Of a stretch of DNA of 64,000 nt, positions 458 through 54,500 are shown one piece after another. The first letter of the stretch is position 1. Each line of letters opens with the position of its first letter. The stretch covers positions 1 to 64,000 of the forward strand of contig CALSCP010000257.1 in NCBI GenBank assembly GCA_943704425.1. Reading direction: 5' to 3'. The notes below the pieces were generated by a model. It did no database searches. It worked only from the letters and a program-made list of their open reading frames with translations, and was not told the DNA's origin. The translations under genes and the position numbers were made by a program. The DNA comes from Ministeria vibrans ATCC 50519 (lineage: Eukaryota > Protista > Filasterea).

Positions 458-2565
<2,108 letters not shown>

Positions 2566-2679: not shown

Positions 2680-4573
2680 CTAGAGGAGGGCAGCTTCGAT
2701 GGACTGGAGGCGTAGGTAGAGAGTGACAGAGGAGGCGGAGAGAAGGAGGACGAGGCAGGTGAGGGAGAGATGGAGGCAGCAGAGGGTCTTGGAGGGAGAA
2801 TGGAGAAGAGGGGGGGAGTAAGATGAGGAGGAGGAGGGGAGTGGGGGAGAAGGGGAAGAAATAGGACCGGTAGCGGGCAAGACGTGAGTTGCGTGAGAGG
2901 ACGGGAGAGCAGATGGGGCGGTGAGGGGGGCAGGGGAAGACTTGGAGCGCGTCTTGTTGCTGGTGGTAGTGGTAGTGGTAGTGGTGGTAGTGCTAGTGGC
3001 GGTGGATGGTTTCGCAGTAGTGCTGGAGGGGATAGGCATAACGAGGGGAACGGGGACCGACTGACGCAGTTCAGCTACAAATTGGCGAGTGTGACGGTCA
3101 AACTCTGACAGATACATTTTCATGCCCGCATGGTACTGTCGGTTGATGATCACTGCGAGAGAGAGAATGAGTGCTATCTGTATGTATGTATATATATATG
3201 TGTGTGTGTGCGTGTGTATGTATGTATGTATGTATGGATGTACGGTGTGTTGTGTCTTTGTATTGTGTGTGTGTGTGTGGTTCGTACTCTTGACAAAGGT
3301 GCTCTTGAGCCAGGTGATGGTGAGGGAGACGCGCAGATGACACGTGCGGCTGGTGCGAGCAGTGGCACAGTAGCGCACGTGGTTGACAAAGGTGTCACCG
3401 TACATCACTTCCGGGTTGGTTGAGTCGACATTCATGACAAACACGTTACGACAGTCTGCAATGGGCCACGACAAACTGTGCTCCATTGACGTCAGTGCTT
3501 GTTTAGGGCCCTAGACAGAAGTGTGGGATTAAAGAGTCACATAATGCAAGGGAGGAAGAGAGTGGTGCGTGCGTGTGCGTGTACGTATATTATATATAAT
3601 AAATTTATAATTATATTATATAATATTATATATATAAATTATAATTATTATATATGTATGTATGTGTGTGTGTGTGTTTGTGGGGCAGAGGTAGAATGAC
3701 AGGATGAAAGTGAATGATGGAAAATTGTGGTGATACCCAAGACTGGTTCATGGGCATGATGAACTGGATGTGACGCGTGTGGTGCGTCTCACGGTCCGCC
3801 CACGGTTCAATGACAATGTCGCGGTACTTGAGGGACTCGTAGAAGCGCAGGTAGGTCGGAGAGTTGTCGGCGAACATTAACGAATACAGTTCCTCGACGG
3901 TGCAGTTGTAGTCGACGTCGAGGAAGATGTGCTCGTGGTGTTTGGCGCAACCGCACACGGCATTGATTGCTACAGTGGTCAGTGGGGTGAGAAGGAGAGT
4001 TTGCAATCAAAGGAACAGGAGAGTGTACGGTATTCGGGGGTGTCTGCTGAGGGCACGAGAGGGGTCTGGTCGGCCGGAGACGGGTCGAATTCGTCTGACT
4101 CGGGGAGCGAGTCGAGTGTGCTGGCACTGGAGCGGGGAGGGGGCGACGCACTGGCATCGATGGACAGCGCTGAGGGACTCGTACCACTGCCGAGACTGTG
4201 ACGGGGTGGATTCGCAGTGGTAGTGGCGGTGGGAGTGAGTGTGGCCGGGGACGATGCGCTGCGCTGCGAGGGCGCACGGCGCTTGATCACGCGTCGGCCG
4301 CGCACAATGAGCGCCTGATGCCGACCTCCCGCACACCTAGAGAGCAAAGCGTGAACTTTGCTCTACACTATCTCTCATCCGTCTGTCTTTCTCTTCGTAC
4401 CCCACTGCTTTGTACGACTGAAGACACTTTCGGCACGACCCGTGACGCGACGTGAGTGACGCGTGAAATCGGCACGCTGACGTGTGATTTTCGCTCTCGC
4501 TAAAGTACTCACGACACTGTCCACATTTGCTCACCAGATCCTACCCAGAGTAAAAATGTTATTATTTTAATAC

Positions 4574-4610
<37 letters not shown>

Positions 4611-5738
4611 TACCTCGGGGTCTTTTCCACACTCTTCAAAGAATTCGTGGCACTTTTTGTGACAAATTGCATAACACTCTACCCAGTCAAGTGAAGTTGA
4701 GTGAGTTTTGTTTTGTTTTGTTTTGAGTGACACCACAGACACACTTACTGCGACAGGCATAGCCCTGCTTTCCAATTCCCAGAACAGGTTGTGAGCAGTG
4801 AAAGCAGATTTCAATCGAGTGAAAATGCTGAAAAAGAGAGATAGAGAGAAAGAAGGAAGAAACAAAGTGAGAGAGGAGAAAGAAACAAAGTGATAGAGAG
4901 GAGAAAGAAACAAAGTGATAGAGAGGAGAAAGAAACAAAGTGATAGAGAGAGAAAGCGATGAACACACGATGAACACAAAGTGATAGAGAGGAGAAAGAA
5001 ACAAAGTGATAGAGAGAAAGAAACAAAGTGATAGAGAGAGAAAGCAATGAACACAACAAAGTGATAGAGAGAAAGAAACAAAGTGATAGAGAGAGAAAGC
5101 GATGAACGCAACACAATCCATTTTTTAAGAATCGCTTTTACCTTGGCGTAAAATTCGTGGCCATTGACCGCGTGAATGCGGGAATTGGCGGGGTTACTGG
5201 AGGAGGAGACGGACGTGGTGCTGCCTGGACGTGCCTCTTTTGACAGTTTGCGAGAGGAGGAGGCGGAAGGAACGCTGTTGTTGTTGTTGTTGTTGTTGGT
5301 GTTTTGAGGGACCTCCTGCGACGAGCTGTTGCCATCGGTCAGTTCGTCGGGCGTCGAGTCGTCGTCGTCGTCGACATCGGCGGGCGCCCCCACCACGCGA
5401 ATGTGGTAGCGTGCGGAGGGAGTGGAGCCGTCGATGGGCACAACAGCGCCGTCCTCGGCGACCAGGACGATGGGGATGTGGCTTTGTACGGCGCAAGCGG
5501 CCCGGATGCACTTTTCTAAGGCGTCTGCCGTGGTCGACGACGCATACGAAATGCGCACGTCGCTAAACGCCCCCTCGTCGTCCGCCTGGCTGTCGTTGGT
5601 AGTCTCGGCGTCGCTGGGCGCCCGCGAACTGCGCCTGCGTCCGGCGCCTGAGGATGGCACAACCAATGACAGAACTTTGCGTTCTTCCTCCGCTTCGCTC
5701 TTGGCCGGCCCACCGGCCGTTGGAGAACCCTTGGGCAT
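2680..5738 (-). CDS. VASt (Aster/GRAMD1/LAM-like) lipid-transfer protein with N-terminal ubiquitin-like, C1 and CHORD-like Zn domains and a C-terminal TM helix
   Basis: Manual splicing gives C1 HEFYAK|HFHSIEICFHCSQPVLGIGKQGYACR|KCYAICHKKCHEFFEEC; then KCGQCREYFSESENHTSACRFH...CRKC...GCAGGRH; VASt (LDVDYNCTVEELYSLMF...PW...R.IQF...NPEVMYGDTF...RYC...LRVS..I.W.KS..VK); hydrophobic tail CLHLSLTCLVLLLSASSVTLYLRLQSIE. Confidence 0.85.
4846..5108 (-). repeat. Intronic minisatellite, unit about 23-25 nt (ctctctatcactttgtttctttctc), about 9 copies
   Basis: Repeated aaacaaagtgatagagag on the + strand inside intron 1 of the VASt gene. Confidence 0.9.
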
Positions 5739-6066
5739 TTACAATGGACGGAAAAGGGTAAGTGGGAGGGGGTCAATTGACGTTTTAGGTATAAGGTTGA
5801 AGAGAGAATTGAATAAAAATTAAATAATAAATTAAATGGCCCAAATGAGTTCATTCATCATTGAGTTGTCTACACTGTCTAATAAAATGTGAATAAAATG
5901 TCGCCATGTCATTGGTCTGAGCCGAAAAAGGATCACCGTTTACCGACAAAACCCGCCGATCATCTAGAGTTTCTAAATTCTAACACGAAAAGCTGAGGTT
6001 AAGTGGTTTCGTTTGATTTTTGCTTACTAAATTACTAAAGGAGTAAAGGTAAAAGGTCACTTTTTA

Positions 6067-19807: not shown

Positions 19808-22800
19808 GCTGGCCGTCGAATCGGCGACTTTGCCAAATCAGACGTACGGCAATGCCTGTGGCTGCCACAGGGCGAGCCGGCGCGACGAGGGACCGGTACC
19901 ACTATGATGGGTGACGAAGACGAGCCATCGTCGGCGCAGTCGGTCGCGCATCGCGTTGACACTGTGCTCGTCACCCTCACCACCGACGACGCTCTTCTCG
20001 TGTACCGAGTTGCCGAAGACGAGTCCGGTCCGTCCGGCTGGGACATCCAAGAGCGACACTTGCCACTTCGGGAGGTGCGCAAAGCTCTCGGCATCAGCAA
20101 AGGTCCGTCATCCTCACTCATCCCCCCCTTCCCCCCCCCTTATTTTTTTGCTGATACTGTTTGCCTCTGATTTAAAATGTACAGCTGCCGAAGCGGCAAC
20201 AGGGCGCGCCAACATGGCAGGTGTTGACAGCGACGGTCGACTTGTTCTCTTCCTTGGTCCGTCCACCGTGGCGCTTCTCTCCTTTGAGGGCTTCTGGAAT
20301 GTCCTCCAGGCTGTCGGCTCGTATGCTCTCCCTGACGCTGACGCACTCATCAAGTCGCCTATCAGCTCCACGGCAGTTGTCCATCGCATTGCAGCAAACA
20401 CTCTCTTCTCCTTGTACCCGTCAGGCATAGTCGACATCCTCGAGTGCGGCTCAGGGACCCGTCTTGGTCACGTCGACCTTCTCGCTGTTGCTCCATTCGA
20501 GACGGAGACCACCGACAACCTTGACTCATTATCAGCATCATTGTCATCATCATCGCCCGCAGTATCATCGACTACAACATCAACAGCAGCGCCAACAAAA
20601 ACCTCATCACCCCGTGTGTTCAAGACAATGCACGTCACTCCCGATCGCCGTTTCCTCACCATTGGCGAAGGATCCTCTTCGCCCTCACGTGTCACCGTCG
20701 TTGATCTTACTCTATACTTTACGCAATTTCCCGACCATCGTCGTCGCACCGAGAACGAGTCAAATGCCAGCACTGTCGCTGCCATGCTCGCCAATGCGGC
20801 CGCCAATAGTACCCCTGGCCAAACGACCGCTTCCACCTCCTCTGCGTCCAGTGGTGCAGCTACCACAACCTTGTCCTCTGCAATCTCTTCCTCCTTCTCC
20901 TCTACACCTCTCTCCTCACCGTCCAGTCTCCCCTCCGCGCATCTCGTGTGGACCGCCAAACTCAATTTACTTGTCGATGCTTTTCCGCAGACCACTCACG
21001 TCGTCACGTCGAAAGGCCCGCCACGCGCCTGGTACGAAGTCGACAGTGCCACGGCGGACACAGGCGCAAGCGGCATGTCCCCTGCCCTTGTCTCCGTCCG
21101 CGAGCGTTCTTCACGCGCCGCCGCCGCTCAATTTGCTTTTGATCCCAGCACTTTGACGTCTCACGCGCGATTTGTCGAGCCTGACCCCTCGTCCGAACTT
21201 GGCTCTCGTGACGAAGGCGCCGCAGCTAGTACTGCTACTACTACTCTTGCTGCTACTACTACAGCTTCGATTGCCTCTGCAGCCCATACCCCCCCTCTCT
21301 CGCTTGCCTCCAATCATCAGCGCCCGACCACCGCGTCGGCGCCTATCTCTCCCTGTATGCGACACATTGTGCCCGAACTTGACGAAGGCGAAACGCTCGT
21401 GGACGCTGTTCTCTCGCCGGGGGCCGTGCTCGTGCCCGTTCGCCGGGGGTTCCTTTGCACCCGCATCTATGTGTACAACATGACGCAGAGCCGAGGTGCG
21501 ACCTTTGACTACACCGATGGGGTCTTTGTGTGCGAACCGTCCGGCAACGATGCCACCGCCTATGTGCTCACCGATGACGACCTGGGTGCGCTCGTGCCGA
21601 GCACGTCGCAACAAGACCTTCTGACCAACGCGATTGCTTTTGAGTCAACGTCGCTCGCCGACACTCTTTGTCGCACCAACGAGTGGGATGGGCGTCTATT
21701 GCGCATGCACGCGCTCTCGTCGGGCCTGCGCTACCGCCAGCTTGACGTCATCTGGATGGCCTTGCGTGGCGTGGGCACCCAGCAACGCCTTACTGCCTGC
21801 GAAGTGCTTGTCGATGCCATTGCAAACTACTCGTCGCAAAGCCACTACTCTGAATTTGCCGAACAACTCTTGCAAATTGGCCTGGCCTTCATGGCGGAAA
21901 CCATCCACGAGGCGTCCAGCGCGTCAGACACGCCCTCGCCGGAAGATCTTGCCCAGCTTGCGGGCATTGTTGATCGACTCGTATCTGCTCGCTCCTTCGT
22001 CACCAATCCTAAAAGGCCGCCTGAGACCCTTCCCACTCGCCCCTCACATCCTTTCAGCTCGCCCATGGCCAGTCCACGACGATACGGCCCTACCAGCCCA
22101 TCCATTGTACGCAGCGAACCAGCGCTCTCATTGTCCCTCTCCATCTCTTCGAACACCTCACCTTCTCGCACCAGCCCCGGCGTGTCTGCCTCGGCCGGGT
22201 CTCGTCGTCGCCGAACCCCTCGCCGTACCCCGCGTATGCCGTTGAGCGTCGAGAAGCGTCGTCGCGAACAAGTATCGGGCTTGGGACCGCGCAAGGACAC
22301 TCCCGTCTTTAAGCGTCTTCAGCGATCCGCCATTGCCGAGTGGCGTTCCGACCGTGACGATGCCAATCAAGAAGATCTTGCCGAAAACGACGAAGAAGAG
22401 CCGCAGTCGACCCACATTGTCGCTAGTACGAACGTTGGTGGCACCGCCAGCACCACCACTTCTACCACCGTCAACGTCGACGAGGTTGACGACATGGATG
22501 ACATTGTGCCTCTTGATCGACTCGACGCGACGTCGCCGTCTTTGTCGCCTGTTAATGGCGCTTCATCGCCCACCTTCCGTCCTTCCACCCTTCCCTCTTC
22601 CACGTCGGTGTTTTTGCGCGAGCCTCTCAAGGGTGCACACGCACGTTGGAGTCATCATGCAGACGTAGATGTGGTGCGCGACGCGCTTCTCAACGCCTGT
22701 GTACCTCTCGCACAGTCCTACCTGATTGCACGCGCTTCCACTCGCACCTCCAGCGAGACCGATCAGGAGACACACGTGCTTGGGGACCTGCGCGAGTTTC

Positions 22801-25800
22801 AGCTGATTGCTCTCGCCGTTGCGTACGAATCGTTGCGCGATGGTCACTGCGATCGTGCCGTAACCGCCATTGAGAGTATCGGCTTAGATTGTGTCGAGCC
22901 GTTGCGTGAGCTTTTGTACAACACAGTAGACCCGTGCGTGCGTCGCCATGCAGCTGCCGAACTGCAGCGTCGTGGACAGCTCAGCGAAGACGAAAGCAAG
23001 TGTCTAGCTTGGGATGAGTGGTCGCACGCCAACAACAATGGTCGCTATGAAGTGTGTCGCGCCGCCGTGGGCCAGTCGCTCAACCCCGTCGAACCCATGC
23101 ACGACGACAGTGTTGTACGTAGCGGTTCCGTTACCGACGGGTTTCACACTGCCTCACTTGTCGATGTGCACAACCCAGATGCGTTGGTGAGGGCTGTCAT
23201 TGCCGACGACAACAACATCATCAGCAACAATTTGACCACTGCCAACAGCTGTGACGGCGACGACGACGATGTGGAGGACTCGCCCGGTGCTGCCTACTGG
23301 CAGGCGCCTCTCGCATGGCTTCTCGACTGGGACGCGACCACTCGCTCGTTGTGCCGTCTCGAGGCTCACGGGACACAGACGTCCGACGACAGTGATGGCA
23401 CCCACTGTGCGGTGGCACCAGAAGTTGCACTACAGTTTTATGTGCGCCGCGCCAACCTTGCCGCTACCAACAGCTGGTCGCACAACGCGTCTGCAGTCTC
23501 CTTTGAACACGCCGCGCCTTTCGTGCGCGACCACGTCGCTATTCACGCGTGTGAGCAGGGTACATCACTGCCAACTCGCATTGCTTTGGAGCCAGCCTCG
23601 CTGTTGCGCGTCGTTTGTCTTGCCGAGCGTCTTTTCTCGCCAACTCTTCGTCGTGAACAGTGGCATCCCGCCGTGCGTGCCGGCGGTGACGCAGCTGCCT
23701 TTGATGCGTTTATCGTTCGTCTGTGTCGTCGTCATGCTCTTCACGAAGTTCTCTACAGCTATCTCGACCGTCTGTCGCTTGCCACCACACCTGACGCTGC
23801 TCATTCACTGCTGTCGGTGCACGACAGCGACATGTACACGGACACAAGGAACGACAATGAATCCGAGTCGGACGCGTGGATCGAAGCGTTGTTCCATTTC
23901 CGTCTTATTGCCGACAAAGACCGTGTTGTGCGCGCGGACGCGTGTCTCCGCGCTTCACTGGCCTGTGGCAAAGCTCTGGGGATGACCACCGTTGTCGACA
24001 TGATTGAGCGGGGGCGTCCACTCATGGCACTTGCTACGCTCATGTTTGCGGGCAGTGCTCTGTCGGAACACGTCAGCACCGAACAACTGCGCCTCCTTGC
24101 TGCACCCTATCCCGAACTCGAGTTGGCACTCTTTGAAGACGAGCTCGCTGGCGACACTCTGGACGCCGCCACCAATACTTTTAATGTTTACTCGATGCTC
24201 AAGCCTGAAGGAGGCATCTCGCCGGACACGGTGCTCGCTTGGCGTAGCAGCGATGGTGCCGAAATGCCTCACTTCAGTGACCCATCCATGTTGGAAATGG
24301 CCGACACCGCACGCGCTGGTAGCGGGGGTGCCGAGGGTGGTGTTCCCATTAGCGAAAAGATTCTTTACTTTCTCGGCAAGGGACGTCCACTTGAGGCATT
24401 GCGCTGTGCGGGCACGCACGCCCATGATTACATTGACAACGTCGAGAGGTTTGCCTATGCGTCGTTGGCGACGACCCGCGCCTCGTCGGCCTGCGTCGTC
24501 TATTTGCTACATGTGTCGTGTCCCGTGAAACGTCTTGATCGACTACGCGTTCGCCTTGCCGTTGGCATCCGCGTGTTGCGTGGTCCCAGCAACGACGGGA
24601 GTGTTTCTCTGTCTCCAGCGGATACGGCCACTCTCGTGGCCGCACTCTCTCTCGCGGAGCCGGCCGAACATGATGATAGGGCGACTCTTTTGGATGTGCG
24701 CGACCGCGCGAGTGCAGCTACAGCACAACTGGCGAAACGGCGTCGTGTGAGCCCAGGATCGCCCGAAGAGCGTGCTCTCTATGCGGTTGTTCAAGCGTTC
24801 TGTCGCGACGCGCGCCTTTCGCTGGATACAACCTACATTGAACATTGTGCGGCGCGCAATGATTGGCTGGCCTTCCTTGCAGCAGTGCACGTAGATTGCA
24901 TCGACCACGAGGACGCAGCCCGTATCGTCAGCGAACACACGACGGACGTGCCTCTTCGCGAACACCTTGCAACCTTCTTGCGTCGTCATCTGCCGTCGGA
25001 TAACTCGTTGCCTTCCGCCATGGCCAACGACGGTGGCGATGATCCCAACGTAAACGACGATAGTGGCATGTCCAACGATTTGTTTGAAGTGGTCGCGCAA
25101 CATGGGCACAGTGTGGAGACATTGTTGCAAGTGGCACGCGACACCAATCGACCCTTTCTTGCGGTTCTCGCGGCGGCTAGCCAGGAGACAAGCCGCACCG
25201 AAACGGAGGAGTCGCTGACATCCGAGGCATCGTTGCGTTTTGCCGACGCTGCCTACACCTGGCTGCGTTGCTCGTGTGCCGACGTGCTTCAGCGCAAGGC
25301 GTCGGCGTCCCTTACGACGACACGCGTACCCGTGGTGGTGGTTGACGCGAGTGGTGGCCCTGCTGATGGCGTTAATGACGAGGAAGACGCGGCAGAGCTT
25401 ATGACATTGGCATTTGTCGAGGCTGGCGACACGGCCTCTGACCGATTTGGACGCTTGTGTGTGCTACTTGCAGGCGACGGTATGTGGCGATCGCTCTCGG
25501 ATTGTCTCATCATCTTTGATCCTTGCTCGCCTCTACTGCGTTTTATGCAATTTGTGGAGGCGCTCGAGCAGCGTCGCGAGGAGGTTGCTAAAGACCATTT
25601 GGCGGCGTACCTGGCGCAAAGCCAAGGAGACGCGTTGTACGCATACCGCATCGGTTCGCACGTGTGGGTGCGCCAAGTGGCCGAGCAGTGTTGCACAGCG
25701 CTTCTTCGACGATGCACCACGTCGTACGAGCGCACCCAGCTGCTTCGGATGCTCGGTGATGACTTCAGTCCGGCCATGGCCAAGTTGCGCGGCGTGCAGA

Positions 25801-27884
25801 CGGTACTCGAGGAGGCAGGTGTCGCCGTGGTGCCCCACGCGAACCCATCGTCGGTGCGTCGTCGGCTCATTGACGCATGTGCCTTTGATGCAGCACGACA
25901 GTACGCGCGTGCGTACGGACTCGCCACCGAGGAGATCACCCTGTTGGAGATGGAGCATCAGCTACGTCGTTTGCGCACCAGCTCAATGTATGGACGAGCT
26001 CACGCTCGAGAAGAGTTTTTTATGCGATGCCATGAGACCTTCCTCCAACACGCTTGCGACCTTGACAGTTGCGGTGCATTCTTTGAGCGTCTCTCCGACT
26101 CGGATGTGGAATTGCCGTCGCGCGAACGTGCCATGTTGTTGGGACTTGCCCTCATCTGGTTTGACGGAACGGCGCGTGGTCAGGATGCCGACAAGGGCCG
26201 TGTGACCAAGAGTGCCGAGTACCTACAGCAGCTGGAGAATCGAATTTGGCTCATGACCATTGCGAGTGAGGCGGAGGTTCAGTCGCGTCTTCTGAGTGGC
26301 ACTGTAGCATCCAGCACTGCTGCTGCTGGTGGTGGCTCGCCTGGGCGAGCGCGTTCCGGCTTGGCGGCGCTTCTTTTGGATGCGGCAGTGTCGCCGGGAC
26401 GCATTGGCACACAACGTACCTTCTCCTTTCGCAGCGACGATGATGTCAGTGATGGAACTGGTCGTTCTGGTGGCGGAGTAGGTGTAGGCTCGTCGTCGTT
26501 GCCGTCGTCGTCGCGTCGGCGACCCATTGACTTTGTGCTGGCCGTGCTGAACCGTCGTGACTTTGCGCACGATCTCATTGGAGACGCAGGCGCTGACGAG
26601 AACGACGCCTTGACGGCGCTGCAGTCGCTCAATGACAGTAGGAGTGACTCAGGCGATGGGGGTGAGAAAGAGGCCGAACAGCCGTCGTTGTTGACGTCCC
26701 TCCACGAGTTGCGTGCGTTTGAGTTGATCATTGGACGGCTGTTAGATGCCGGTTCGTCGGCCCAAGCACGGCACTTGTGTCATCACTTTCGACAGCCATC
26801 GCGCGATCTGGGAGCATTTGATGTGGCCGTGGCCGTTGCAAAGGGTCTAGTGTCGACGACCGAAGTACCCGCCTACCTGGCGAGTGTAAAGGCCATTGCG
26901 TCGGCGACGGCGGGCAGGACAAGCTCGGGAGCGGATTTGACGGTGGTGGATACAGGGTCCATGGAGGCAGTGCAAGTGCTGGAACATTTGCGGACATGTG
27001 TGGCGATTCACGCCAAACGGTGTTTGGATCGCGTGAGTGTGTGCTATGCGGTGGCACAGACGCTCAACTCAACCTACGACATGGTAGTGTCGCGCGATCC
27101 ACTCGACACGCTCAAGCAGCTGTTGATGTGTGGTCATGCGAGTGTGTACACCCTCACCCAGCGGTTTCTGGCCGACATGGGTACCGAGTCCAAAGTGGTT
27201 GCCGAGCGTCTGTGTGACATTCTGCTGCGCGTGCTTGTCGACGAACATGCCTCCATTGTCGATGAGGGACAGCTTTTGTCGGGCCCCGGGTTCTCTCTTG
27301 ACCCCGGTCTGAGCAACTCGGAGTTTACGCAGTGCGCCAACCTATGTAGCGACCCAGGAGACCTTGGGCGTGCACTGGTGCACTGTGTGCAAATGAGCAA
27401 TGAACCACCGCCCGACCAAATGACGACGGTCGTTGCGCCCGAGGTGGAAGTGGAGCTCATTGTACGTGCCCACTTCTGCTATGTGCTCGTGGGCAACATG
27501 GAGGGTATCTCGCATGTGCTCGAGCTGGTGCGCTCGCGCGTCTCCGTTTACGTCGACGCGCGGATGTTCCGTCTGCTCGTGCGTCTACTCACAGGGATCA
27601 AAAAGTACCGTGAAATGCAGTACATATTTGATGTGCTCCTCAAGCACGATCAGTTTGAGCTGGTGCTCAGCAAGGTATATAATAAAACGAGAGGCAGGAA
27701 GAAAGGAAATGAAAGAATGAACTTCTTTTGTCTTAATTATTACAGGTGATGGACAAGGGAGGACAAATGGAGTTGAAGATGGCGCTCTATGACTATCTGA
27801 AGCGCCATCGACCAGACGACCAAGTACGAAGGGGCATTTTGTATATTCTGTCTATGAATCGTTTTCTTAAACTGCATCTGTGTG

Positions 27885-32998: not shown

Positions 32999-35900
32999 AT
33001 GTCGAAAAAAGCTGCAATAAAAGCTGCTCGCGATGCATTGCGTGCCAAGGAATACGACCGTGCACTCGAATTGTCCTTGGGCATCGCTGAAGACGAGCCT
33101 CGAAAGTACGCAAGAACGTTTTGTGTGTCGCATCGCATTTGACGGCTCTTCCTCCTCCTCCTCCACAGCTACAATGCGCTCGTCTTTGGCGGTGCTGCGG
33201 CAGAAGGTCTTCAACACTATGTACAGTCGCAAGAGGTACCTACCCGTGACGGCTACACGTCACAATGTGTGTTGTCGTTTGATCCACACTTTTCCTTTCG
33301 ACTCACCGATAGCTTTACGAGCGCGCTCTGGACGTCGACAGCGATTCGCCTCTCGCCTGGCAAGGCCTTGTCAAGCTTTTTGATACGATGAAGCCGCCCC
33401 CGTCGGCAGTGGATCGTGTCCGTGTCTATCGCGGCGCGCTCGAACGACTCAGCGACGATACGAAGCAACGCGAGCTGAGTCTCCTCTTGACGCAGGCGCT
33501 CGACGACAGTTGTGGCGGAACCAGCTCCAGCGCTAATGTTGACGTAGTGGTTGACACTGTGGCACGTTGGCACACCATTGCGTGCGACGACCATGGCAGC
33601 AACGCGGCGGATGTACGACGGCGTGCTCGGGAGAGCCTGGCGCACCTCATGATGCGTCGTGCCGACTGTGTTGACCACAGTTGCGTTGCATATCTTGTGA
33701 GCGCCGTCGAGATTCTTGCCAGCGAGGCGAACACCGAGAAAGACAATGCGGATTCCACCTGCTGGGATACGCTCTTGCTAGACGCATTGTGGGCACGTGT
33801 TCGTACAGTCGGTACCTTGTCGCTCATTGCCACGGCAGCGCGCCGTTGTGTGGCGCAACATCCGCAGCTACTTGCCGCTCACGAGGCAATGTGCAATGTG
33901 TACGCATTTGACTGCGAGCTCGTGAGCGAACACGAGTTTTTGCACCATGCCAACCAATTGGCATCGCTGTCAAGCACCAGCTCCGACAATGCTCCATCCG
34001 TCGTTCTTTTTATGCGTGCAGCCAGCTCAGGCGACAATGATGCACTCGCAACACTTGCCAATACGCCGGGCGCCTATCCTCTGGTGCACCTTGCTCTCAC
34101 TGATGCTCTCATGGAACGCGGCGACCATGCTCAGGCTCGCCTCGCCGCCAGCGTCAATCCTTTTCCTCAGCTCGCGTCATTGTCTTCCTCAGCACCACCC
34201 ACTCCCGACAGCAGCAGCAGCAACAACAACAACACGGATGAGGCGGGCACCTCGACGACGACTGGTTTTGACATATCTGTGCGACAGCTCGATCCCAAGA
34301 GTCTTTGGCTCAGCGATTCGCTGCGCGTCTGTCGTGCCGAAATTGCCGCGCATCTGGGTCAACACGCGCGCGCATTGACAGCTCTTGAAGAAACGATTGA
34401 AGCATCACCCCACCGAACGGCTGTCGTGCGCGCACATCTTTCGCGTGCACAGCTTGTCGCCGCTCACAGTAGCGGCACCGACAGCTCACCCTTGCATGCT
34501 TCGTTGCGGTCTCTTGTGGCGCTCTCCTTGGCCACACTCGATGCACGCGTGCTCGAATCACTCACGGCCGCTGTCGATTTGTCCACACAAAAGGGCTCCT
34601 CTGTGCCACAGCACACGCGTCTACTGGCGATGGCTCGCCTTGCTTGGCTGCGTCGCGACATTGAGACGCTTACAGAGACGGCCGCCGCCAACAGCAACAG
34701 CAAGTGTGCCTTTCCGTCGTACGAGATTCTTTTACGTCTCGGCGTTGCGCTGCTCGCTCGAAGCGGTGCCTCGATGGTCACTGTTGAGTGTCGCGATGCG
34801 CTCCTCAAGGCTGCAAAGCTTCGCCCGAGCGTCGCACTGTGTTTTGAGGCACTCGGCGACTTCTACGAGGCGACTGCTGATCCGGCACGCGCTATCAAGT
34901 GTCGTCGTCGTGTGCTACTTTTGGATCCGGCGCATCCTGCAGGACCCGCCCTCATCCGTACTATGTCCGATAGTGATCCGGAGAAGTGCGCGTTGCTGCA
35001 GCAGATTACCACGGCTGCAGGAAGTGGCAAGGCGCGCTGGGCCTGGCTTGCGCTTGCGACTTTGCAGCGCAGTGCAGGCGACACATCGGCAGCGGTACTC
35101 TCGTACCAGGCAGCGTTGAGAGGAAACACACGCGATCCTCAAACTTGGCGATTGCTTGCCTCGTGCTACTTGGCCGAAGGCAAGCAAATTGCTGCACTCA
35201 AGGCGTACCGTCATACGCTCACCATGGACCCAGCTCACGTCGAGACCCACTATGCGATTGCGACGACACTCGCCGCCATGGGCAGTTTCACAGACGCGAT
35301 TGGCGCGTATCGCGCTGTGCTTCACACTCCCGATGGCGCATCACATGTACCAGCCCATTTTGGCATTGCAAACGCTCTCCATGCCAGTGCACGCGAGCAC
35401 TTGTTGCAAGGTAGCGTTGCGCGCGCCTCCGATATGCTTCGTGACGCACTTAAGCATGCCTTTGTCGTGGTCACCGCTGCCGCCGTGGCCGCTGAGGGTC
35501 GAGGGTCGGTGTGCGCCTGGAAACTCGTTGGTGACTTGTGTACACAGTTTCATCACCTGCCCGAACACCTCTGCCATGTTGTCGACGAGGGTGGCGTCAA
35601 CGTGTCCTCACGTTCGCATGTGCTTGCGTTGGGTGCGCGTGCCTACGAACGTGCCATCAGTAAGTCCACCGATCCAGTTACGGGAGCGCTCTGGCACGAT
35701 CTGGCACTTGCACGGTACTACACGGGTGACCGCGAGTCGATTGTAAAGGCACTTGAGGCTGTGCGGGTTGCGATACACATGGTACCGCGTCAAGTGGAGT
35801 TTTTTTGCACGGCCGGAGTGATTGCCAGCCATCCTCTGTCACGCAACGCCCGCTTTGCTCAACACTGCTTTCTGCGAGCGATTCAACTTGATCTGGCCAA

Positions 35901-37488
35901 TGCCGCCGCGTGGACCGGCCTGGGCACGCTTTACCTGAGCAACGGCTATATCCAATTGGCGCACCTTGCTTACCAGCGAGCCCAGGCTGCCGACCCGTCA
36001 CACGCCAGCGCTTGGGCCGGCCAGGCTCTTGTAGCCGAATCTCTTGTGCCCGATCAGGCACTGGGCCTGCATCGTCACGCGGCGGAGCTTGATGCGCACC
36101 CGGAGGCAGACTTTCGCTTTGCGCTGCATCATTTGCGTGCGTGTGGCACCACTACTGCCCCCAGCGTGACCGTGTCCGATTCGCAACTGGCAAATGCGCG
36201 TGCACTTGAAGCGGCCGAACGATGTTGTCAGCGTAACCCACGCGACGCTGATGCACACAATGTCTACGCATTGCTGTTGGAACGTGCCGGACTGCGTCGT
36301 CTCGCGTGTGAGCACGCCGCTCGTACTGTTGCTCTGCTTGCCGCTGCCTCCGCAACGACAACCACAGCCAAACTAACTGCGGCGCGCGCCAACCATGCGC
36401 GATTGCTTGCCTCGGTGCAACACCACGCGGAGTCGCTGTCACTCTTTGAGGCGTGCGCATCGGAGCTGTCGGTTGATGCTGAAGCAGTGGCCAACTATGC
36501 GCGAACACTAGCCGCTGCGGGTCGACCCAAGGAGGCTTACGAGCGATATGCAGCTCTCTTGGCTGCAGTCGAGTCTACATCGAGTAGCTCCACTCTGCGT
36601 CGCATCGCCGACCTCAAAGTGGCACTTGCGGTGTGTGCAGCACGCTGCGACAATCACACGGTGGCACGCCAGCTGCTTCTGGAGGCAGCTCAGGTGTGCG
36701 CAGGGCACCAACAGGCATTGTTGACGCTCTGTGCACTCTCACTGATTCACAGCGATGGGCAAACGGCCGTGAGTGCGCTCGGTGAGCTGTTGCGTGCGAA
36801 CACTCGCGAACGCTCCTTCGAAGGCGACACGGACGTTGCCGTGATTTTTGGTGCGCTGTTCACATTGCAAAAGCACACAGGCAAGGCACGGAATCATTTG
36901 TTGCGCCTGGTGCACGCCTATCCACACATGGCACGCAGCTGGCAGTTGGTGGCGGGCTTTTTGGTAACACGTGGTACAACTGGCACGGCCACCAGTTTGT
37001 TGTGTGCGCGCACGGCACAGGCTGTGCGACGAGCGCGCGTGAGAGTCTTTGACGATATTGCCGGCGCGACAGGCGGTGTCTGTCCCCAGCCTGACTCACT
37101 ATTGGCACTCACTCTCCAGTGCAGCACGGCGCGCGTTGTGTCGCCGGTGGCACAGCGACGACAGGCGGCTCGCAGTGTCTTTATGCATCCCACAGACCCA
37201 CTTGCCTGGCAGTGTCTTGCGGCAGCCGTGCGTCAAGACACCAAACTGTTGTCGGCGCCCGAGTCATGTGCACGCGTGTGTGCCACCACCATGCTATTGT
37301 TGAACAAGCGAGACACTGCGGTGGCCTGGAGCGAGCGTTTGAAAGCAGAGTGTCACGTTGCTGCTATTGAAGTTGATCCCAAGCGACCAGTGTCCGCTGA
37401 GAAGGCGAGTGAAGCTGACGCGGCCATTCAACGCGTATTGGCACACGCCGACCAACAACAACAACAACAACTACAACAACAAAAACAG

Positions 37489-37520
<32 letters not shown>

Positions 37521-38130
37521 GTATGACCCACAAGAACAGGTGATTGGGTTGTGGTTGCATGGGCGTCTGGCATTGCAGTTGGGACAGACAGCGGCTGCAC
37601 TGACGTCGCTCAAGCGTGGTCTTCAGCTGGCGCTTTTGAGATCTCCCGCCCTTGCTGACCGTTTGTGGGCTCTACTTGCGAGTGTATATGAGTTACTGGG
37701 GCTCCAGCGTGCCTCACAGCTGTGCCAGAGTGTACCGGCTGGTGGTACTGTCGTGGCGACGTTGAGGTGTGCTTTGGGAGCGTTGCGTCGCGGGGACACA
37801 AGCGAAGCGGTTAAGCAGGCGGGAAGGGTGATTGCGACAACGGAGTCTGGTAGTGAGACGCAGACGGCGGCGCACACGCTCATCGCGCTTGCGAGTGCTG
37901 TCACGAGCGAGACACGATCACTGCGGCGCAGCGCGCAAGCAGTATTGGCAAACGGTCACGATACGTCTCCTGTGAGCGCCTCACTCGTGCTCTGCGCTCA
38001 ACTGAGTGCCAGTGCGGCCAAGCAGGACACGGACACTCTCTTGGCCACGGCCGACCAACTTCAAGCGCTTGCTCGTCGTCACACTGTCACGCCACACACC
38101 GCGGCTCTTCTGGCGCAGTGTGCACAATAG
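32999..38130 (+). CDS. TTC37: Superkiller complex TPR subunit SKI3/TTC37
   Basis: IKAARDALRAKEY; NYNALVF.G; LAWQGL; KC.RR.LLLDP; ARWAWL.L; YQAALR...D...W..LA.CY..EGK..AALK.Y; AWKL.GD; AQHCFLRAIQ; AW.GLG.LYL; AQA.DP....W.GQAL.AE. Confidence 0.9.
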
Positions 38131-48074: not shown

Positions 48075-48527
48075 AGATCGAGAATATACAAGTAAGTATG
48101 TCAAAAAAACTCGTCGTAATTAACAAGTTCAATCGTCAGTTCACAATGAATAATAAATAATCATATTATTTTGTATTCGGTGCTCACGTTATCTGTACAG
48201 CACCAGTTCAAGCCGCAAAACATTACCAATCGTTCGAGAAGCGAGAACCATGGAGTCGTAAGAAATAGAAATCAGAAAAGAAAACGACCCTCTTTCTCCA
48301 AATCTTGTGTGGTGCATTTGAACGGCCTACTACGTACAATGTCTACCACCGCCATTCCTGTTTTCTACCTTTTTTCGTGTCGATTTTGACAGTTGTTGGA
48401 AAAAAAACATTGATGAAAAAAGAACCATTGTATTGATATACAAGAGAGATTGTTGTTTATCGCACACGCTTTTGGGGGGCTCTTGCTCTCTGATACGCGG
48501 CGGTTGCGGCGGGGCCGACTGGAAGGC

Positions 48528-48560
<33 letters not shown>

Positions 48561-48569
48561 GCTTTGTAG

Positions 48570-51500
48570 AACTGTCCGATGGCGATATTAAAAGCTTTCT
48601 TAAGGCGCTGTTTGGGACGCTGCATCGGTATCGCGATCGAGCGTCCAAGCTGGGCGTGCTCAACACCTTTTCGGCATTGTGTGCACGCGATGCTTCGCGC
48701 GTCGCCTCCTTCGCCCTGCCGGCGCTCACTCGCATTTCCACCAGCTCTGTGGGTGCCTGTGCGGTCCTCATGGACTGGTCGTGCTGCGTCGTCGCCGCCG
48801 CGCCCGTCCAGCTGTTTACCGAGAAGCCAGCGTTGATCAAGGCAGCGCTCGCCGCTCAGGGAACCCTTCTCGTTGTCGCCGGTGACGCCAACGGAGTCTC
48901 CGCCTACCAGAAGATTGCTCGTCGTCTCGTCGCCATGCTTCAAAAGGGCCCGGCCTCGCTCGTGTCCATCTACTGGAGCACCGTCTTGGCGGCGTGCAAG
49001 GACAGCCCCTCGCAGACCGACCTTGCCATTGGGTCGCTGCTCTCCACCTGCTCCTCCTCCCCTCCGTCGACCGACCACGCCCTGCTCAAGCCTCTCTACA
49101 CCGCCTACGCCACCATGGTGACGAGCTCGCGTAGCGTTCCCTCAGCCGGCATCCTCGTTGCCACCGCGCCCCTCTTTGCCGTGGCGACCCTCGAAGACCT
49201 ACGCGACATTATCGTGCCGGCCTTTGAACGCGCCCTTCTCCGCGTCCCCGAGTGTGTCCTCGATGCCCTTGCCTACACCCTTGGCCACGTGTCCAAGGTT
49301 GACATTAGTCCTTTCTTGGGGTCGCTCGGCAACACCGTCTGCAGTCAGCTCCTTGCAAAATCCATCGCTGTACGTGCCGCCTCCCTCACCACCCTCAGCA
49401 CTATGGCCCGCTGTTCGCAGTCCGCTGACGCCCTTCTTGTTCTTGCAAACACTCTCTTGGAGACGCTGGCAGGCAAAAAGAGTGGGAAAATCACGAGTGC
49501 GGAATTGCGCGTGACGCTCTTGGCTGGACTTGTTGCCGTTGCCGATGTCGACGGTTCCACCTTCTCGCTCACCCAACGCGCCTTTGCAACCAGTTTTACG
49601 TCAACTGCAGTCGCCACTGCAGGTAGTGCCGCATCTGCATCGTCGACAACGTCGTCGGCAGCAGCTGCGACTGCAAGCGCACCAGGTGCAGGCACTGCGG
49701 GATCTTCGGCGGCTCTCTCTGCCGACTCTTCCAACCTGCTTGCTGCACCTCCTGTGATCGCTGTCGCGGACGCCTCGTCCTCTTCCTCCTCCTCCTCGTC
49801 GTCGTCGCGTGTTTCTGCCGAGTCGCTCTCAATGACCGCCTCGCATGTGATCCAGCAGCTCATGACCGTGATTGCGACCGAGGCAAACGAACTTGTGCAG
49901 ACGACCGCGACCATTGCCTTGCGCGCCTGGTCGAGCCGCCTTCAGTCGTGGCCCGATGCCCTCAGCGAACCCTGTACCAAGGCCCTGGCGGCCGCTCCGT
50001 CCAAGACGCCTGCTGCCAACCTCCTTGCCGATCGCTGGCTCGTCTGTCTCGAGGCTGTCTCCTCCGTCTGCGCCCCCTCCATTCCTGCCAGCATCTCCAA
50101 AGCACTCGGCGAGCTTGTTGTGCGCGACATAGCCGCCGGCGTGCCCAACACCCTTGCGTCGAGTGCCGCCATTGCTGCGAATGTCCTCTTGGGCATTTGC
50201 ATCGAGACCGCAACCAATCCCAGCGCCGCCTTCTGGGCATCTGTCTGCTCGCCACGCATCTTTATGACCGAGCGTCAGAGCCAATCGGCGTCGCACGACG
50301 TGCAACTCACTCAAGTCAACCTTATCGGCCGCTTGGTGCGTGTCAGTGTCAACAAGGACGACAGCGCCACCGTCTCATCCGTCTCTAATTTGTGCACCAC
50401 TAGTGTTCTCTTGCTTCTCGCGTCGAAACTGTGGCGTGTGCGCACCGCCGCAGCCGACATTCTCGTTGCGGCAGCCATTGTCAATGGTTCCCTCGCCTAC
50501 GCCGAGTCTCTCGTACGCGCCTACATTACCTTGGTATCGACACGCAACAACGTCTCTCACGGTGGTCGCGCTGCCAACCGTGATCTAGCGGGCGTCCTCG
50601 CTGCATGCTGTGCTTTACCCACCGCCACCACAGACCCCTCGGTGGGCAATGCGGCAAATGCTTCACTTGCCGCTCTTGCCTTAGCTGCTGCGCAGCTTCC
50701 AGCCGTGCGCGCCTTCGCCCCGTCGTCCTGGCACACCGCTGTGACCGCTTGCACCGGGGCGGTTGACGCCGAAAAGTACGTGTGTCGCTTTGCGACGTCT
50801 CTCTTGCGCTTTCTCGCCGCCGAAGCAACCGCGTGTGTTGCCACCGATGCTGACTGGCAGGATGCTTGTCTACGTGCCATTACGGTCGTCGCTACGTGCC
50901 TTGCCGACTCGGACTCAATGGACGCCGTGCCCGTCGTGCACGCACTCAAGCCCATCTTTGCTGACTGGCTCAATGTCACTGCCGTTGGCGAGCTCACTCC
51001 GCGCGACGTTGGCGTGTACCTTACCAACGAGGGCACACTCTTTGACTCGAGCGCCGTCGACGCTCTTGGCTCGTCGGGTGCGGGTGCTCGGTCGGGCGGC
51101 AAGGACGCCGCGTGGGAGGCGCAGGTGCGCGCGGAGCTTGCCAAGAAGAAGGGTGAAGTCGTGTTGACGGCCAAGCAGAAACAGGTGCAGGCTCAGTTGC
51201 TCAAGGACGAAGCAGAGGTGCGTGAGCGCGTAGCGCTCGTAGACCAGGTCGTCTCACGCGGCCTCAACCTTGCACTGCTTTTGTGCCGTCGCCTCTCGAC
51301 AGCGTGTGAACTTGCCGAACGCCTGGTGCCCACTCTGTTGCACCTGTCTGGTTTGCCGCTGACTGGCAAGCGTGCAGCACTCGCCTGGATCGAACTGCTG
51401 CGTACTCTTGCGGCGCTGCCTGCCTTCAGCGCCACCTTTCCCTTTGGTACACTCGAAACCATCGGTTTTGTCACGTTGCGTCGTGCAGTGCACGGTGCAG

Positions 51501-54500
51501 CCCAGTCGGGCGCCCTCTTCGACCCCGAGTGGTGTGTTGAGCCTCTTGCGCAGGCAATGGATCGTTCGCTCGCCAACGTCGCTCACTCCATTGCTCTTGT
51601 GCCCATTACCACAGCACTTTTTGCTTGTCTCTGGCCCGTCTCGCGTGTCGTTCTCACGGATCAGGCCGCGCCCGCGTCCCTCGTCGAGTCCGCCGTCACC
51701 ATTGTCGCACAACACGCATCGCTCGGTGTCACCTGGGCCGGCGATAGTTCGCTGCCACCCTCCATTGTTGCCGCACTTTCAGCCTCGGTGGAACTTCACG
51801 CGTCGGCGTGTGCACGCGCGCGTGACGCCGTCGTCGATTGGAGCACCAACTGTGGGGCGTCCATGAGCCACGGCGCGGGTCTTTCGGCCCTGTGCAACGG
51901 TCTCTGGTCGCCGAGCTCGCCTTTGCGTGAGGGCTGTTTGCGTGCACTGACGGCACTCTCCGAGTCGCTTGAGATGCCCGCCGATTCGGTGCACATTTGG
52001 ACGGCGACCTTTGACGATGTGCTCACCAATGTGGACCTGGCACAGGCATTGTGGCGTCGTTTCGGCGTGCCCCACACCGCCGGCCGATGCCTTTCTCTTG
52101 TTGAGCTCACCTCGTCCGACGTCGACTACGTGCGTGACGTTGCCACCAAGGCGCTGGCCGCGTCACTTGACAATCTCGGTGACACGGAGGACGCCGAGGC
52201 GACCGCGGCTCTTCTCACCGATCGTCTCATTGAGATGCACGCGGACCTGTCGCGCGTAATCGCACCGGAGCGTGATCAATTTGGTAACTTGGTGGGCGAG
52301 CCGCCGCGCGATCGATGGCAGGCACGCGTGGGCGTCGCAACAGCCATGGAGCGAGCTGCCGTGGGACTGTGTCGCTCGACCCCCGCCATCATGCGTATCT
52401 TCCAGTTGCTCGCCGATGGCAACGCACTGGGCGACCGCGAATCGAGTGTGCGCGCCGCGATCCTCAAGGCAGGCATGGCGCTGATTGACGCTTGTGGTGC
52501 GCGGCTCTCCACCGAGCTGCTGGCGGTCTTTGAAGACTTTCTTGATGCGCCGCACACCTCGAGCAGCATATACGACTACACACGCGAAGGTGTCGTTGTG
52601 CTGATGGGATCGCTGGCGCGTCATTTTGGTGCAGGCGAGTCGGATCGTGTGGGACCCGTCGTGGACAAACTCATCCTGGCGCTGTCGACACCATCACAGA
52701 GTGTACAGCAGGCTGTGTCGCGCTGCCTGCCGGCACTCGTGCCGCGCATTAGTGCACGTGTGCCCGAACTCATTGAACAGCTGCTGCAGGATGTCCTCGA
52801 GGGCTCGTCGTACGGCGTGCGTCGTGGCGCAGCCTTTGGTCTGGCGGGTCTGGTCAAGGGTCAGGGTCTCAGTTCGTTGAAACAATGTAACATTATGAGT
52901 CGACTGCAGGAAGCAGTGCAGAACAAGAAGCGCGTAGTGCATCGCGAGGGTGCTCTACTTGCCTTTGAGACTCTCTGCGTGACACTTGGACGTCTCTTTG
53001 AACCGTACATCATCACGGTGCTGCCCCACATGCTGGCGTGCTTTGGCGATGGCAACAAAGACGTGCGTGCGGCGACAGAAGACACAGCACGTGTCATCAT
53101 GGGCAACCTGAGCGCCCATGGCGTCAAACTGGTGCTGCCGGCGCTTCTTGAGGCACTCGAAGACCGCGCCTGGCGAACCAAGCAAGGTAGCGCCGAAATG
53201 CTCGGCAAGATGGCCTTTTGTGCGCCCAAGCAGCTCTCGTCGTGTCTGCCTACCATTGTCCCTCGTCTCACCGAAGTGCTTGCTGACTCGCACATCAAAG
53301 TGCAAGAGGCAGGTGCACTCGCCCTGAAGCAAATTGGCTCGGTGATTCGCAATCCCGAAGTGCAACTTATTGTGCCTACGCTGCTCGATGCGCTCGCGCG
53401 TCCTGACGCCGCTGCACAGCGTTCCTTGTCGCAACTGCTTCACACTGAATTTGTGCACTTTATCGATGCACCATCGCTCGCGCTCATCATGCCCATTGTG
53501 GAGCGTGCGCTCATGTCGCGCTCAACCGACACCAAGCGCATGGCGGCGCAGATTGTCGGCAACATGAGTAACCTGACGGACCACAAGGATCTGGCGCCCT
53601 ACCTGCCCTCACTGGTGCCGGGCATCAAGCAGGTGCTGCTCGATCCGATTCCTGAGGTGCGTGGCATTGCAAGCAAGGCGCTCGGTCGCATGGTGCGTGC
53701 CATGGGCGAGCAAACCTTCAACGATCTGGTGCCCTGGTTGCGTGCCACGATGGAGGCGGACACGGGCACTGTGGATCGCGCTGGTGCCGCTCAGGGACTC
53801 AGCGAGGTGCTGCTCACGCTGGGCACGGACCGCCTGCGTGACTTTATGGAGGTGGCCATTGAGGGCTGTCGCTCCGAGTTCCCCTGGACTCGCGAAGGCT
53901 ACACCATGCTCTTCATTTACATGCCGTCCGTGTTTGGCGATGCGCTCCTGCCCTACGTGGGCCCCGTGCTGCCGGCGCTTCTTGAGGGCCTGGCTGACGA
54001 GCACGAGTATGTGCGCGATGCGGCACTCAAGGCCGGCCAAATGATTATTAACCACTTTGCCGACACATCAGTGGAGCTTCTCTTGCCGCACCTTGACCAG
54101 GGTCTGTGCGACGCCAACTGGCGTATCCGTCAGTCGAGCGTGCAACTGTTGGGTGACCTGCTCTACTCGCTGGGCGGACTCAGTGGCAAGAAGTCGACCA
54201 TTGGCGACGAGGACGAGGGCTTTGGCACTGAAGAGGCGCAAAAGATGATTGCCGTGGCGCTGGGCGCCGAACGTCGTCGTCGTGTGCTTGCGGGACTGTA
54301 CCTGGCGCGCCAGGATGTGCAATTGGTGGTGCGTCAACTGGCGATGCACGTGTGGAAGACGGTCGTGGTGAACACGACGCGAACCGTGCGCGAACTGCTG
54401 CCGGTGCTCATGACTCTCATTCTCGATGCGCTTGCAAGCACCACGGTCGACCGACGCACCGTGGCGGCACGCACACTTGGCGACATTGTGCGCAAACTTG

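Follow-up and report, generated by a model that had tools for sequence, protein, structure and literature searches.

A LAM/Aster-family protein without GRAM: ubiquitin-like, C1 and zinc domains precede the VASt carrier in Ministeria and Pigoraptor

The stretch of Ministeria vibrans DNA analyzed here (positions 1 to 64,000 of contig CALSCP010000257.1, called the window at its full length of 64,000 nucleotides (nt)) carries on its minus strand, from 5738 to 2680, a gene for a LAM/Aster protein with an apparently undescribed domain architecture. A three-frame reading together with a splice-site search gave eight exons and seven introns, all GT-AG, which encode 705 amino acids (aa) and end in one stop codon; a TAA in frame directly precedes the ATG. 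The reading that we favor, with a probability of about 0.55, is that this LAM/Aster protein without GRAM is a sterol shuttle, anchored in the endoplasmic reticulum (ER), whose head of C1 finger, zinc module, and basic patch docks on another, anionic membrane and is likely insensitive to diacylglycerol (DAG). All five features named in a first-pass annotation of this locus (a ubiquitin-like segment, a C1 finger, a second zinc module, a VASt domain, and a C-terminal anchor) are present on the minus strand where it had placed them. The parts of the gene are as follows.

5142..5738, minus strand: exon 1, aa 1-199, with start codon, ubiquitin-like domain, acidic/Asn-Ser linker, and the six opening C1 residues
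5391..5678, minus strand: ubiquitin-like (beta-grasp) domain, aa 21-116, with a long loop after strand 1; PB1-like, not PB1 by Pfam; fold seen on the homologue P0006
4828..5141, minus strand: intron 1, 314 nt, containing a minisatellite; spliced out in contigs from three runs
4629..5159, minus strand: C1 zinc finger, aa 194-242, exons 1-3, with Ile11, Gly23, Gln27, and Gly28
4749..4827, minus strand: exon 2, C1 with both ligand loops
4614..4678, minus strand: exon 3, end of C1
4401..4540, minus strand: exon 4, most of the zinc module
4318..4525, minus strand: eight-ligand CCCH-CCCH zinc module, aa 253-300, CHORD/Btk-like
4029..4336, minus strand: exon 5, end of the zinc module and low-complexity linker
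4276..4302, minus strand: basic patch, aa 306-314, C-terminal to the zinc module
3737..3969, minus strand: exon 6, CxCxxH motif at 3955-3938, then the first VASt half
3073..3925, minus strand: VASt/StARkin domain with closing helix, about aa 412-575, exons 6-8
3288..3510, minus strand: exon 7, second VASt half
2680..3152, minus strand: exon 8, VASt closing helix, Thr/Ser/Pro linker, hydrophobic anchor, short tail, and stop
2713..2787, minus strand: predicted C-terminal transmembrane (TM) helix, aa 671-695, then a short Y-x-R-[LI] tail

Searching 1.84 billion representatives with exon 7 by HMMER returned 15 proteins, one of which combines C1 with VASt; the remaining 14 have VASt alone or with GRAM, PH, BAR, or C2. 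The exception, P0006, belongs to Pigoraptor vietnamica (Filasterea), and a search with it among 7993 candidates of 288-919 aa gave five matches: P0006 itself, P0018 of P. chileana, and three protein kinases C (PKCs). The window protein, P0006, and P0018 have the same order of ubiquitin-like domain, C1, eight-ligand zinc module, VASt, and C-terminal hydrophobic helix, and the window protein is colinear with P0006 over 517 columns (E 2e-86). GRAM is absent, as the first-pass annotation had it: no GRAM/PH match was found in 8/8 exons (Pfam, E up to 5) or in P0006 and P0018 (E up to 10), and other domains fill that place. Co-occurrence of C1 and VASt is rare (1/15). That the architecture is a common annotated family can be ruled out, since C1 accompanies VASt in only that one relative and in none of the architectures in the accessible text of a VASt survey (PMC4082322), which gives GRAM, C2, FCH, Pex24p, and PH as partners. 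The combination was not found in the literature searched, which was mostly without subscription papers. A 349-aa fragment lacking the N-terminal half, P0007, has a similar VASt domain and Y-x-R-L tail and could represent a fourth member. Neither exon 1 nor exon 7 gave a match in word-indexed searches, a weak negative because the P0006 query likewise missed the window protein; a metagenome scan with P0006 gave 68 pattern matches, none confirmed, and an Atlas search with whole P0006 gave no usable match. In a VASt tree of 15 rows, without animal rows and omitting copies outside the anchor pattern (including those of P0002, P0010, P0014, and P0015), the window domain groups weakly with Pigoraptor (73/81).

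The C1 finger carries much of the argument. All eight zinc ligands stand at canonical spacing (H-x12-C-x2-C-x13-C-x2-C-x4-H-x2-C-x(6-7)-C), although they are split over three exons; on exon 2 Pfam recognizes one half of a C1 domain (E 6e-4), and it scores C1_1 at 42-43 bits in the homologues. The finger is complete, keeps the G-x-x-K-Q-G loop, and lacks Pro11, all as the first-pass annotation had described it; the residue at position 11 is Ile. Between the window protein and P0006 this is the best-kept domain (33/49 identical vs 61/164 for VASt), and positions 7-9 and 11-12 (H-F-H-x-I-E) hold identical non-PKC residues in all three species. Because this replacement loop is invariant, C1 seems to have taken on a new function and retained it. 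The first-pass annotation had suggested recruitment by DAG or another lipid, and the reading in which C1 senses DAG, with phospholipase C (PLC) signaling recruiting an ER-anchored sterol shuttle, has its attractions: beyond the intact zinc ligands and the strong conservation, the DAG-sensitive residues Gly23, Gln27, and Gly28 are kept, and the nearest solved C1 domains belong to DAG-responsive PKCs. Yet all three species have Ile11, Ile/Leu at 13, and Leu/Ala at 22, in contrast to the Pro11, aromatic 13, and Trp/Tyr22 kept in 6/6 C1 domains of the three comparison PKCs. Pro11 is described as strictly conserved in DAG-sensitive C1 domains, and positions 13, 20, 22, and 24 as their hydrophobic ligand cage (PMC9110374). 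These changes weaken both the DAG half of the suggestion and the link to PLC signaling, whereas its fallback of another lipid fits better; we regard DAG recruitment as unlikely. A degenerate C1-loop pattern search gave two near-identical loci; stop codons surround the match, no further domain accompanies it, and both loci were set aside as chance.

The second zinc module begins exactly 10 residues behind C1 in each of the three species, and its ligands (C253, C256, C270, H273, C283, C286, C295, and H300) are 8/8 conserved in both homologues. Identity between the window protein and P0006 is 17/46 here, and the segment scores 52 bits against the Pigoraptor protein (best of 40 shuffles, 22 bits). 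The first-pass annotation assigned it to the CHORD/Btk type. The eight ligands and their CCCH-CCCH order, kept in three species, agree with that assignment, and so does an Atlas lead: the neighbors of exon 4 are an unnamed cluster (0.94), a cluster in which 19% of members have CHORD (0.90), and one in which 13% have BTK (0.88), the CHORD and BTK leads having a recognition value of 2276, below the 2300 mark. However, Pfam has no CHORD or BTK match in the exons or homologues; the ligand set stands, and the family name is a lead. The Cys-pair spacing of CHORD differs from that of the two CxxC pairs in this module. In the 16 residues that follow the module, the window protein has six Lys or Arg and no Asp or Glu (four Lys or Arg in each homologue), and the net charge of C1, zinc module, and these 16 residues is +10, +7, and +6 in the three proteins.

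The segment that the first-pass annotation thought might be ubiquitin-like corresponds to aa 63-116 and does lie in such a domain, but the alignments place the domain start earlier, with strand 1 at about aa 21-28 and then a long loop. The annotation also likened this segment to the N-terminal part of PDE9A, and a literature search on that resemblance gave nothing related. The predicted model of P0006 bears out the fold: it has a beta-grasp with a predicted local distance difference test score (pLDDT) of 83-87 over residues 31-80 and superposes on the TBK1 ubiquitin-like domain (ULD) at Z 8.1 with a root-mean-square deviation (rmsd) of 2.5 over 72 aligned residues. Ubiquitin-like chains match this model from Z 8.1 down to 6.4, with PB1 rows at 6.5-6.6 and no subfamily prominent. 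The window segment scores 41 bits against the Pigoraptor protein (best of 40 shuffles, 19 bits), and for aa 50-125 Atlas gives as neighbors ubiquitin-fold families (GRHL1_C 0.91, TDP-43_N 0.90, Ubiquitin_GT-1 0.89) along with a cluster that has PB1 in 20% of members (0.86). A PDB sequence search with the window segment returned 0 matches, and for the PB1 strand-1 Lys there is no clearly conserved candidate.

Such a domain could itself lead the targeting by binding either a PB1 partner or a small GTPase, with an auxiliary role for C1, after the manner of Raf RBD-C1, PKD ULD-C1a, or atypical PKC PB1-C1. A beta-grasp fold suits this idea, kinases are known to carry a cassette in which C1 follows a ubiquitin-like domain (PMC6768651), and P0006 and P0018 have a D-A-E-G-D segment, preceded by Tyr, that agrees with the definition of the PB1 acidic motif in PMC7051960. 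Set against these points are the low identity of the domain (18/57, window protein vs P0006), the degenerate or lost acidic motif and the 70-residue low-complexity linker before C1 in the window protein, and the absence of a prominent subfamily among the structural matches. The Raf and PKD cassettes, in which the ubiquitin-like domain directly precedes C1 (PMC6768651), are also unlike this protein in sitting on kinases, and no sequence link to their ubiquitin-like domains was found. Targeting led mainly by protein contact thus appears rather improbable.

For the VASt domain the first-pass annotation was right: exon 6 (46.5 bits) and exon 7 (44.9 bits) each exceed the Pfam PF16016 cut-off of 27 alone, and the homologues score 104 and 117. 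Among solved structures the nearest relatives are Aster-A and Aster-C, followed by LAM domains of plants and yeast (Ysp2, Lam4), and the GRAMD1A match has E 1.9e-15 for P0006, 9.7e-17 for P0018, and 0.0022 for exon 6 alone. These relatives, together with the kept G-P-K loop and Y-G-D and R-Y-C segments, argue against a VASt domain that carries a non-sterol lipid or serves only as sensor or tether. Room for that reading comes from an identity of only 37% to the orthologue P0006 and from a full-length model (pLDDT 43) that is unreliable for pocket residues, and we consider it a slim prospect. That model was too poor to use elsewhere as well; its Foldseek list, with Aster first at an rmsd of ~20, was given no weight. 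A C-x-C-x-x-H motif just before VASt (3938-3955, minus strand) is also found in both Pigoraptor proteins and precedes VASt copies in 8/14 other proteins of the search, BAR/PH-type LAMs included, and in 0/3 of the C2-GRAM type. A putative zinc site might be built from this motif and the Cys in the R-Y-C strand.

The C-terminal TM anchor of the first-pass annotation is likewise predicted from hydropathy in all three proteins, with a 19-residue Kyte-Doolittle mean of 1.96 for the window protein and 2.86 and 2.75 for the homologues, and the P0006 model has a long helix at 487-524 (pLDDT 82-88). Tail identity between the window protein and P0006 is 10/32; the TM segment alone scores 11.5 bits against P0006, which is not above the shuffle maximum of 13.9. 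A check for a luminal amphipathic helix found a conserved tail of 12-16 residues with a hydrophobic moment of only 0.12-0.24, and a simple pattern for an FFAT-like motif gave no match.

The gene at 5738-2680 is a real spliced gene, with one transcript for exons 1-6. Contigs from 4 of 14 sequencing runs (X1, X2, X5, and X12) were compared with 3700-5900; X1 and X2 are two samples of one study, and X5 comes from a different study. None of the runs is recorded as RNA, and X1, X2, and X5 were taken as RNA because their contigs skip GT-AG introns. In both X1 and X2, one contig (1478 nt and 3501 nt, respectively) runs through exons 1-6 without a mismatch and skips the minisatellite intron, which places C1 and VASt on one transcript, as the first-pass annotation had supposed; the stretch of 63 letters that separates exon 2 from exon 4 in these contigs has the length required for exon 3, counting two shared letters. 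Short contigs of X5 contain junctions 1/2, 4/5, and 5/6, and loose ends match exon 3 (its 5′ part) and exon 7 at the predicted sites, which supports junction 6/7. Junction 7/8 is placed by homology only, through a gap-free alignment to P0006. X12 has no splice joints, and its contigs enter intron 1 from both sides and leave exons 3-6 uncovered, where this run is uninformative. That C1 and VASt lie in separate genes or were misjoined at the minisatellite, which the dispersed repeat and the lack of a single spanning DNA contig among those compared might suggest, is ruled out by the spliced contigs of X1 and X2, by junction 1/2 in the separate study, by DNA contigs entering intron 1 from both sides, by the C1 H-x12-C spacing that is exact across this intron, and by the identical domain order in two orthologues.

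Three further observations concern the introns. The minisatellite (4833-5113) is a dispersed repeat at which thousands of X12 contigs and hundreds of X1/X2 contigs match. Intron 7 (3153-3287, minus strand; 135 nt) is in frame and stop-free and, if retained, would place 45 low-complexity residues inside VASt before the closing helix. The exon-1 frame stays open through introns 1-3 (409 aa, 4509-5738, minus strand), and gene callers misled by it would lose C1 and VASt.

In the favored reading of a DAG-insensitive sterol shuttle, the C-terminal tail would anchor the protein in the ER and VASt would shuttle sterol across the gap, both steps being inferred from family knowledge (PMC4463742). Judging from the anatomy, C1 finger, zinc module, and basic patch would act as one membrane-binding unit in place of GRAM and dock on an anionic membrane with no need for DAG, while the ubiquitin-like domain would add a protein contact that tunes the docking site. 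With its ubiquitin-like domain, pseudosubstrate remnant, and single C1A-type finger, the head would derive from a PKC, namely from the regulatory region at its N terminus; it does look like such a region transplanted in the atypical-PKC layout, a resemblance that the first-pass annotation missed. C1 is closer to PKC C1A (18-22/42) than to C1B (14-16/42), and in Pigoraptor a G-x-L-K-x-x-K-V-H segment upstream of C1 matches the pseudosubstrate-C1A junction. In one row of the match table, a single continuous alignment (E 5.4e-13) pairs residues 35-185 of P0018 with residues 33-194 of PKC iota, and PKC iota is the top Foldseek row (E 1.2e-3). Since a PKC-like head is joined to an Aster/LAM carrier, a trigger different from that of the animal and yeast versions is likely.

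A number of points weigh against this reading. Weak DAG binding is possible, given that Gly23, Gln27, and Gly28 are kept and the C1 rim has no arginine cluster, and Glu12 and the histidines of C1 do not make an obvious anionic-lipid surface. C1 and the zinc module fall below pLDDT 55 in both models (the zinc region below 50 in one), which leaves their packing only putative, and the anchor of the window protein is only moderately hydrophobic. As for a PKC-derived head, Pfam PB1 scores P0006 at 12.3 bits, under the cut-off of 23.6, and gives no match for P0018 or the window protein, where the acidic motif is also degenerate; the P0006 model has one helix only and lacks the second PB1 helix. P0006 itself aligns to PKC iota over C1 only (103-169), PKC beta C1A scores equal or higher (49.7-56.3 bits, first domain), and the polybasic pseudosubstrate is gone from the head.

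Known systems resemble this protein in parts. GRAMD1A-C/Aster and yeast Lam1-6, the best PDB matches, share VASt, an unstructured linker, and a C-terminal hydrophobic helix with a short tail, an ending described for GRAMD1 in PMC6905856; they differ in having GRAM/PH, which in GRAMD1 reads anionic lipid plus sterol (PMC6905856), where the window protein has its ubiquitin-like domain, C1, and zinc module. Atypical PKCs (iota/zeta) share a ubiquitin-fold domain followed by a single C1 without DAG-type loop residues, and their PB1-pseudosubstrate-C1 module binds membranes without DAG (PMC10333572). In contrast to them, the gene and its homologues have no kinase domain, and the window protein has no polybasic pseudosubstrate, no arginine rim, and no Pfam PB1 match (its homologue P0006 stays under the cut-off), and it has a zinc module and VASt after C1. 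The best functional precedent is PDZD8 (TM-SMP-PDZ-C1-coiled coil), a lipid-transfer protein anchored in the ER; its C1 acts as a tether to a second membrane and binds phosphatidylserine and phosphatidylinositol 4-phosphate, not DAG (PMC7486383). Unlike the window protein, PDZD8 has the unrelated SMP carrier fold, an N-terminal anchor, and no ubiquitin-like or second zinc domain. The window protein is a member of the VASt family; it is not a GRAMD1, not an atypical PKC, and not a proven PB1 or CHORD protein.

LAM/Aster proteins determine the sites at which sterol passes between the ER and other membranes, with GRAM as the sensor in animals and yeast, and the present gene offers a natural swap of GRAM for a kinase-type signaling head, kept in at least three species. 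A new accessory domain on a LAM protein is a modest surprise in a family known for varied ones, and the sure members found number three. Two questions can be put directly to this gene, namely whether any docking head will serve the carrier half and which ligand a conserved C1 without Pro11 has. A bolder and quite doubtful idea is that, in unicellular relatives of animals, a true copy of the PB1-pseudosubstrate-C1 region of atypical PKC was grafted on an Aster-type carrier; a PB1 partner from the polarity machinery would then, before the rise of animals, have directed sterol transfer from ER to membrane toward one side of the cell. The filasterean Capsaspora is reported to have an atypical PKC orthologue (PMC7104321), and, if the head did come from atypical PKC, it would bear on what parts of the animal polarity kinase did in single cells.

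The VASt gene has unremarkable eukaryotic neighbors in the window: RUVBL1, a pseudouridine synthase, a cytosolic carboxypeptidase, spatacsin, and GCN1. RUVBL1 (474-2565, plus strand) lies tail to tail with the VASt gene, with 114 nt (2566-2679) between the two stop codons. The X2 contig extends 2040 nt beyond exon 6, where exons 7-8 need 696 nt, which suggests that overlapping 3′ ends of RUVBL1 and the VASt gene were merged in the assembly. Farther along the plus strand are very long intron-free frames at 19908-27749 (spatacsin C-terminal match), 33313-38130 (a TPR protein), and 48494-56608 (GCN1-like HEAT repeats), and the other genes around them have many short introns.

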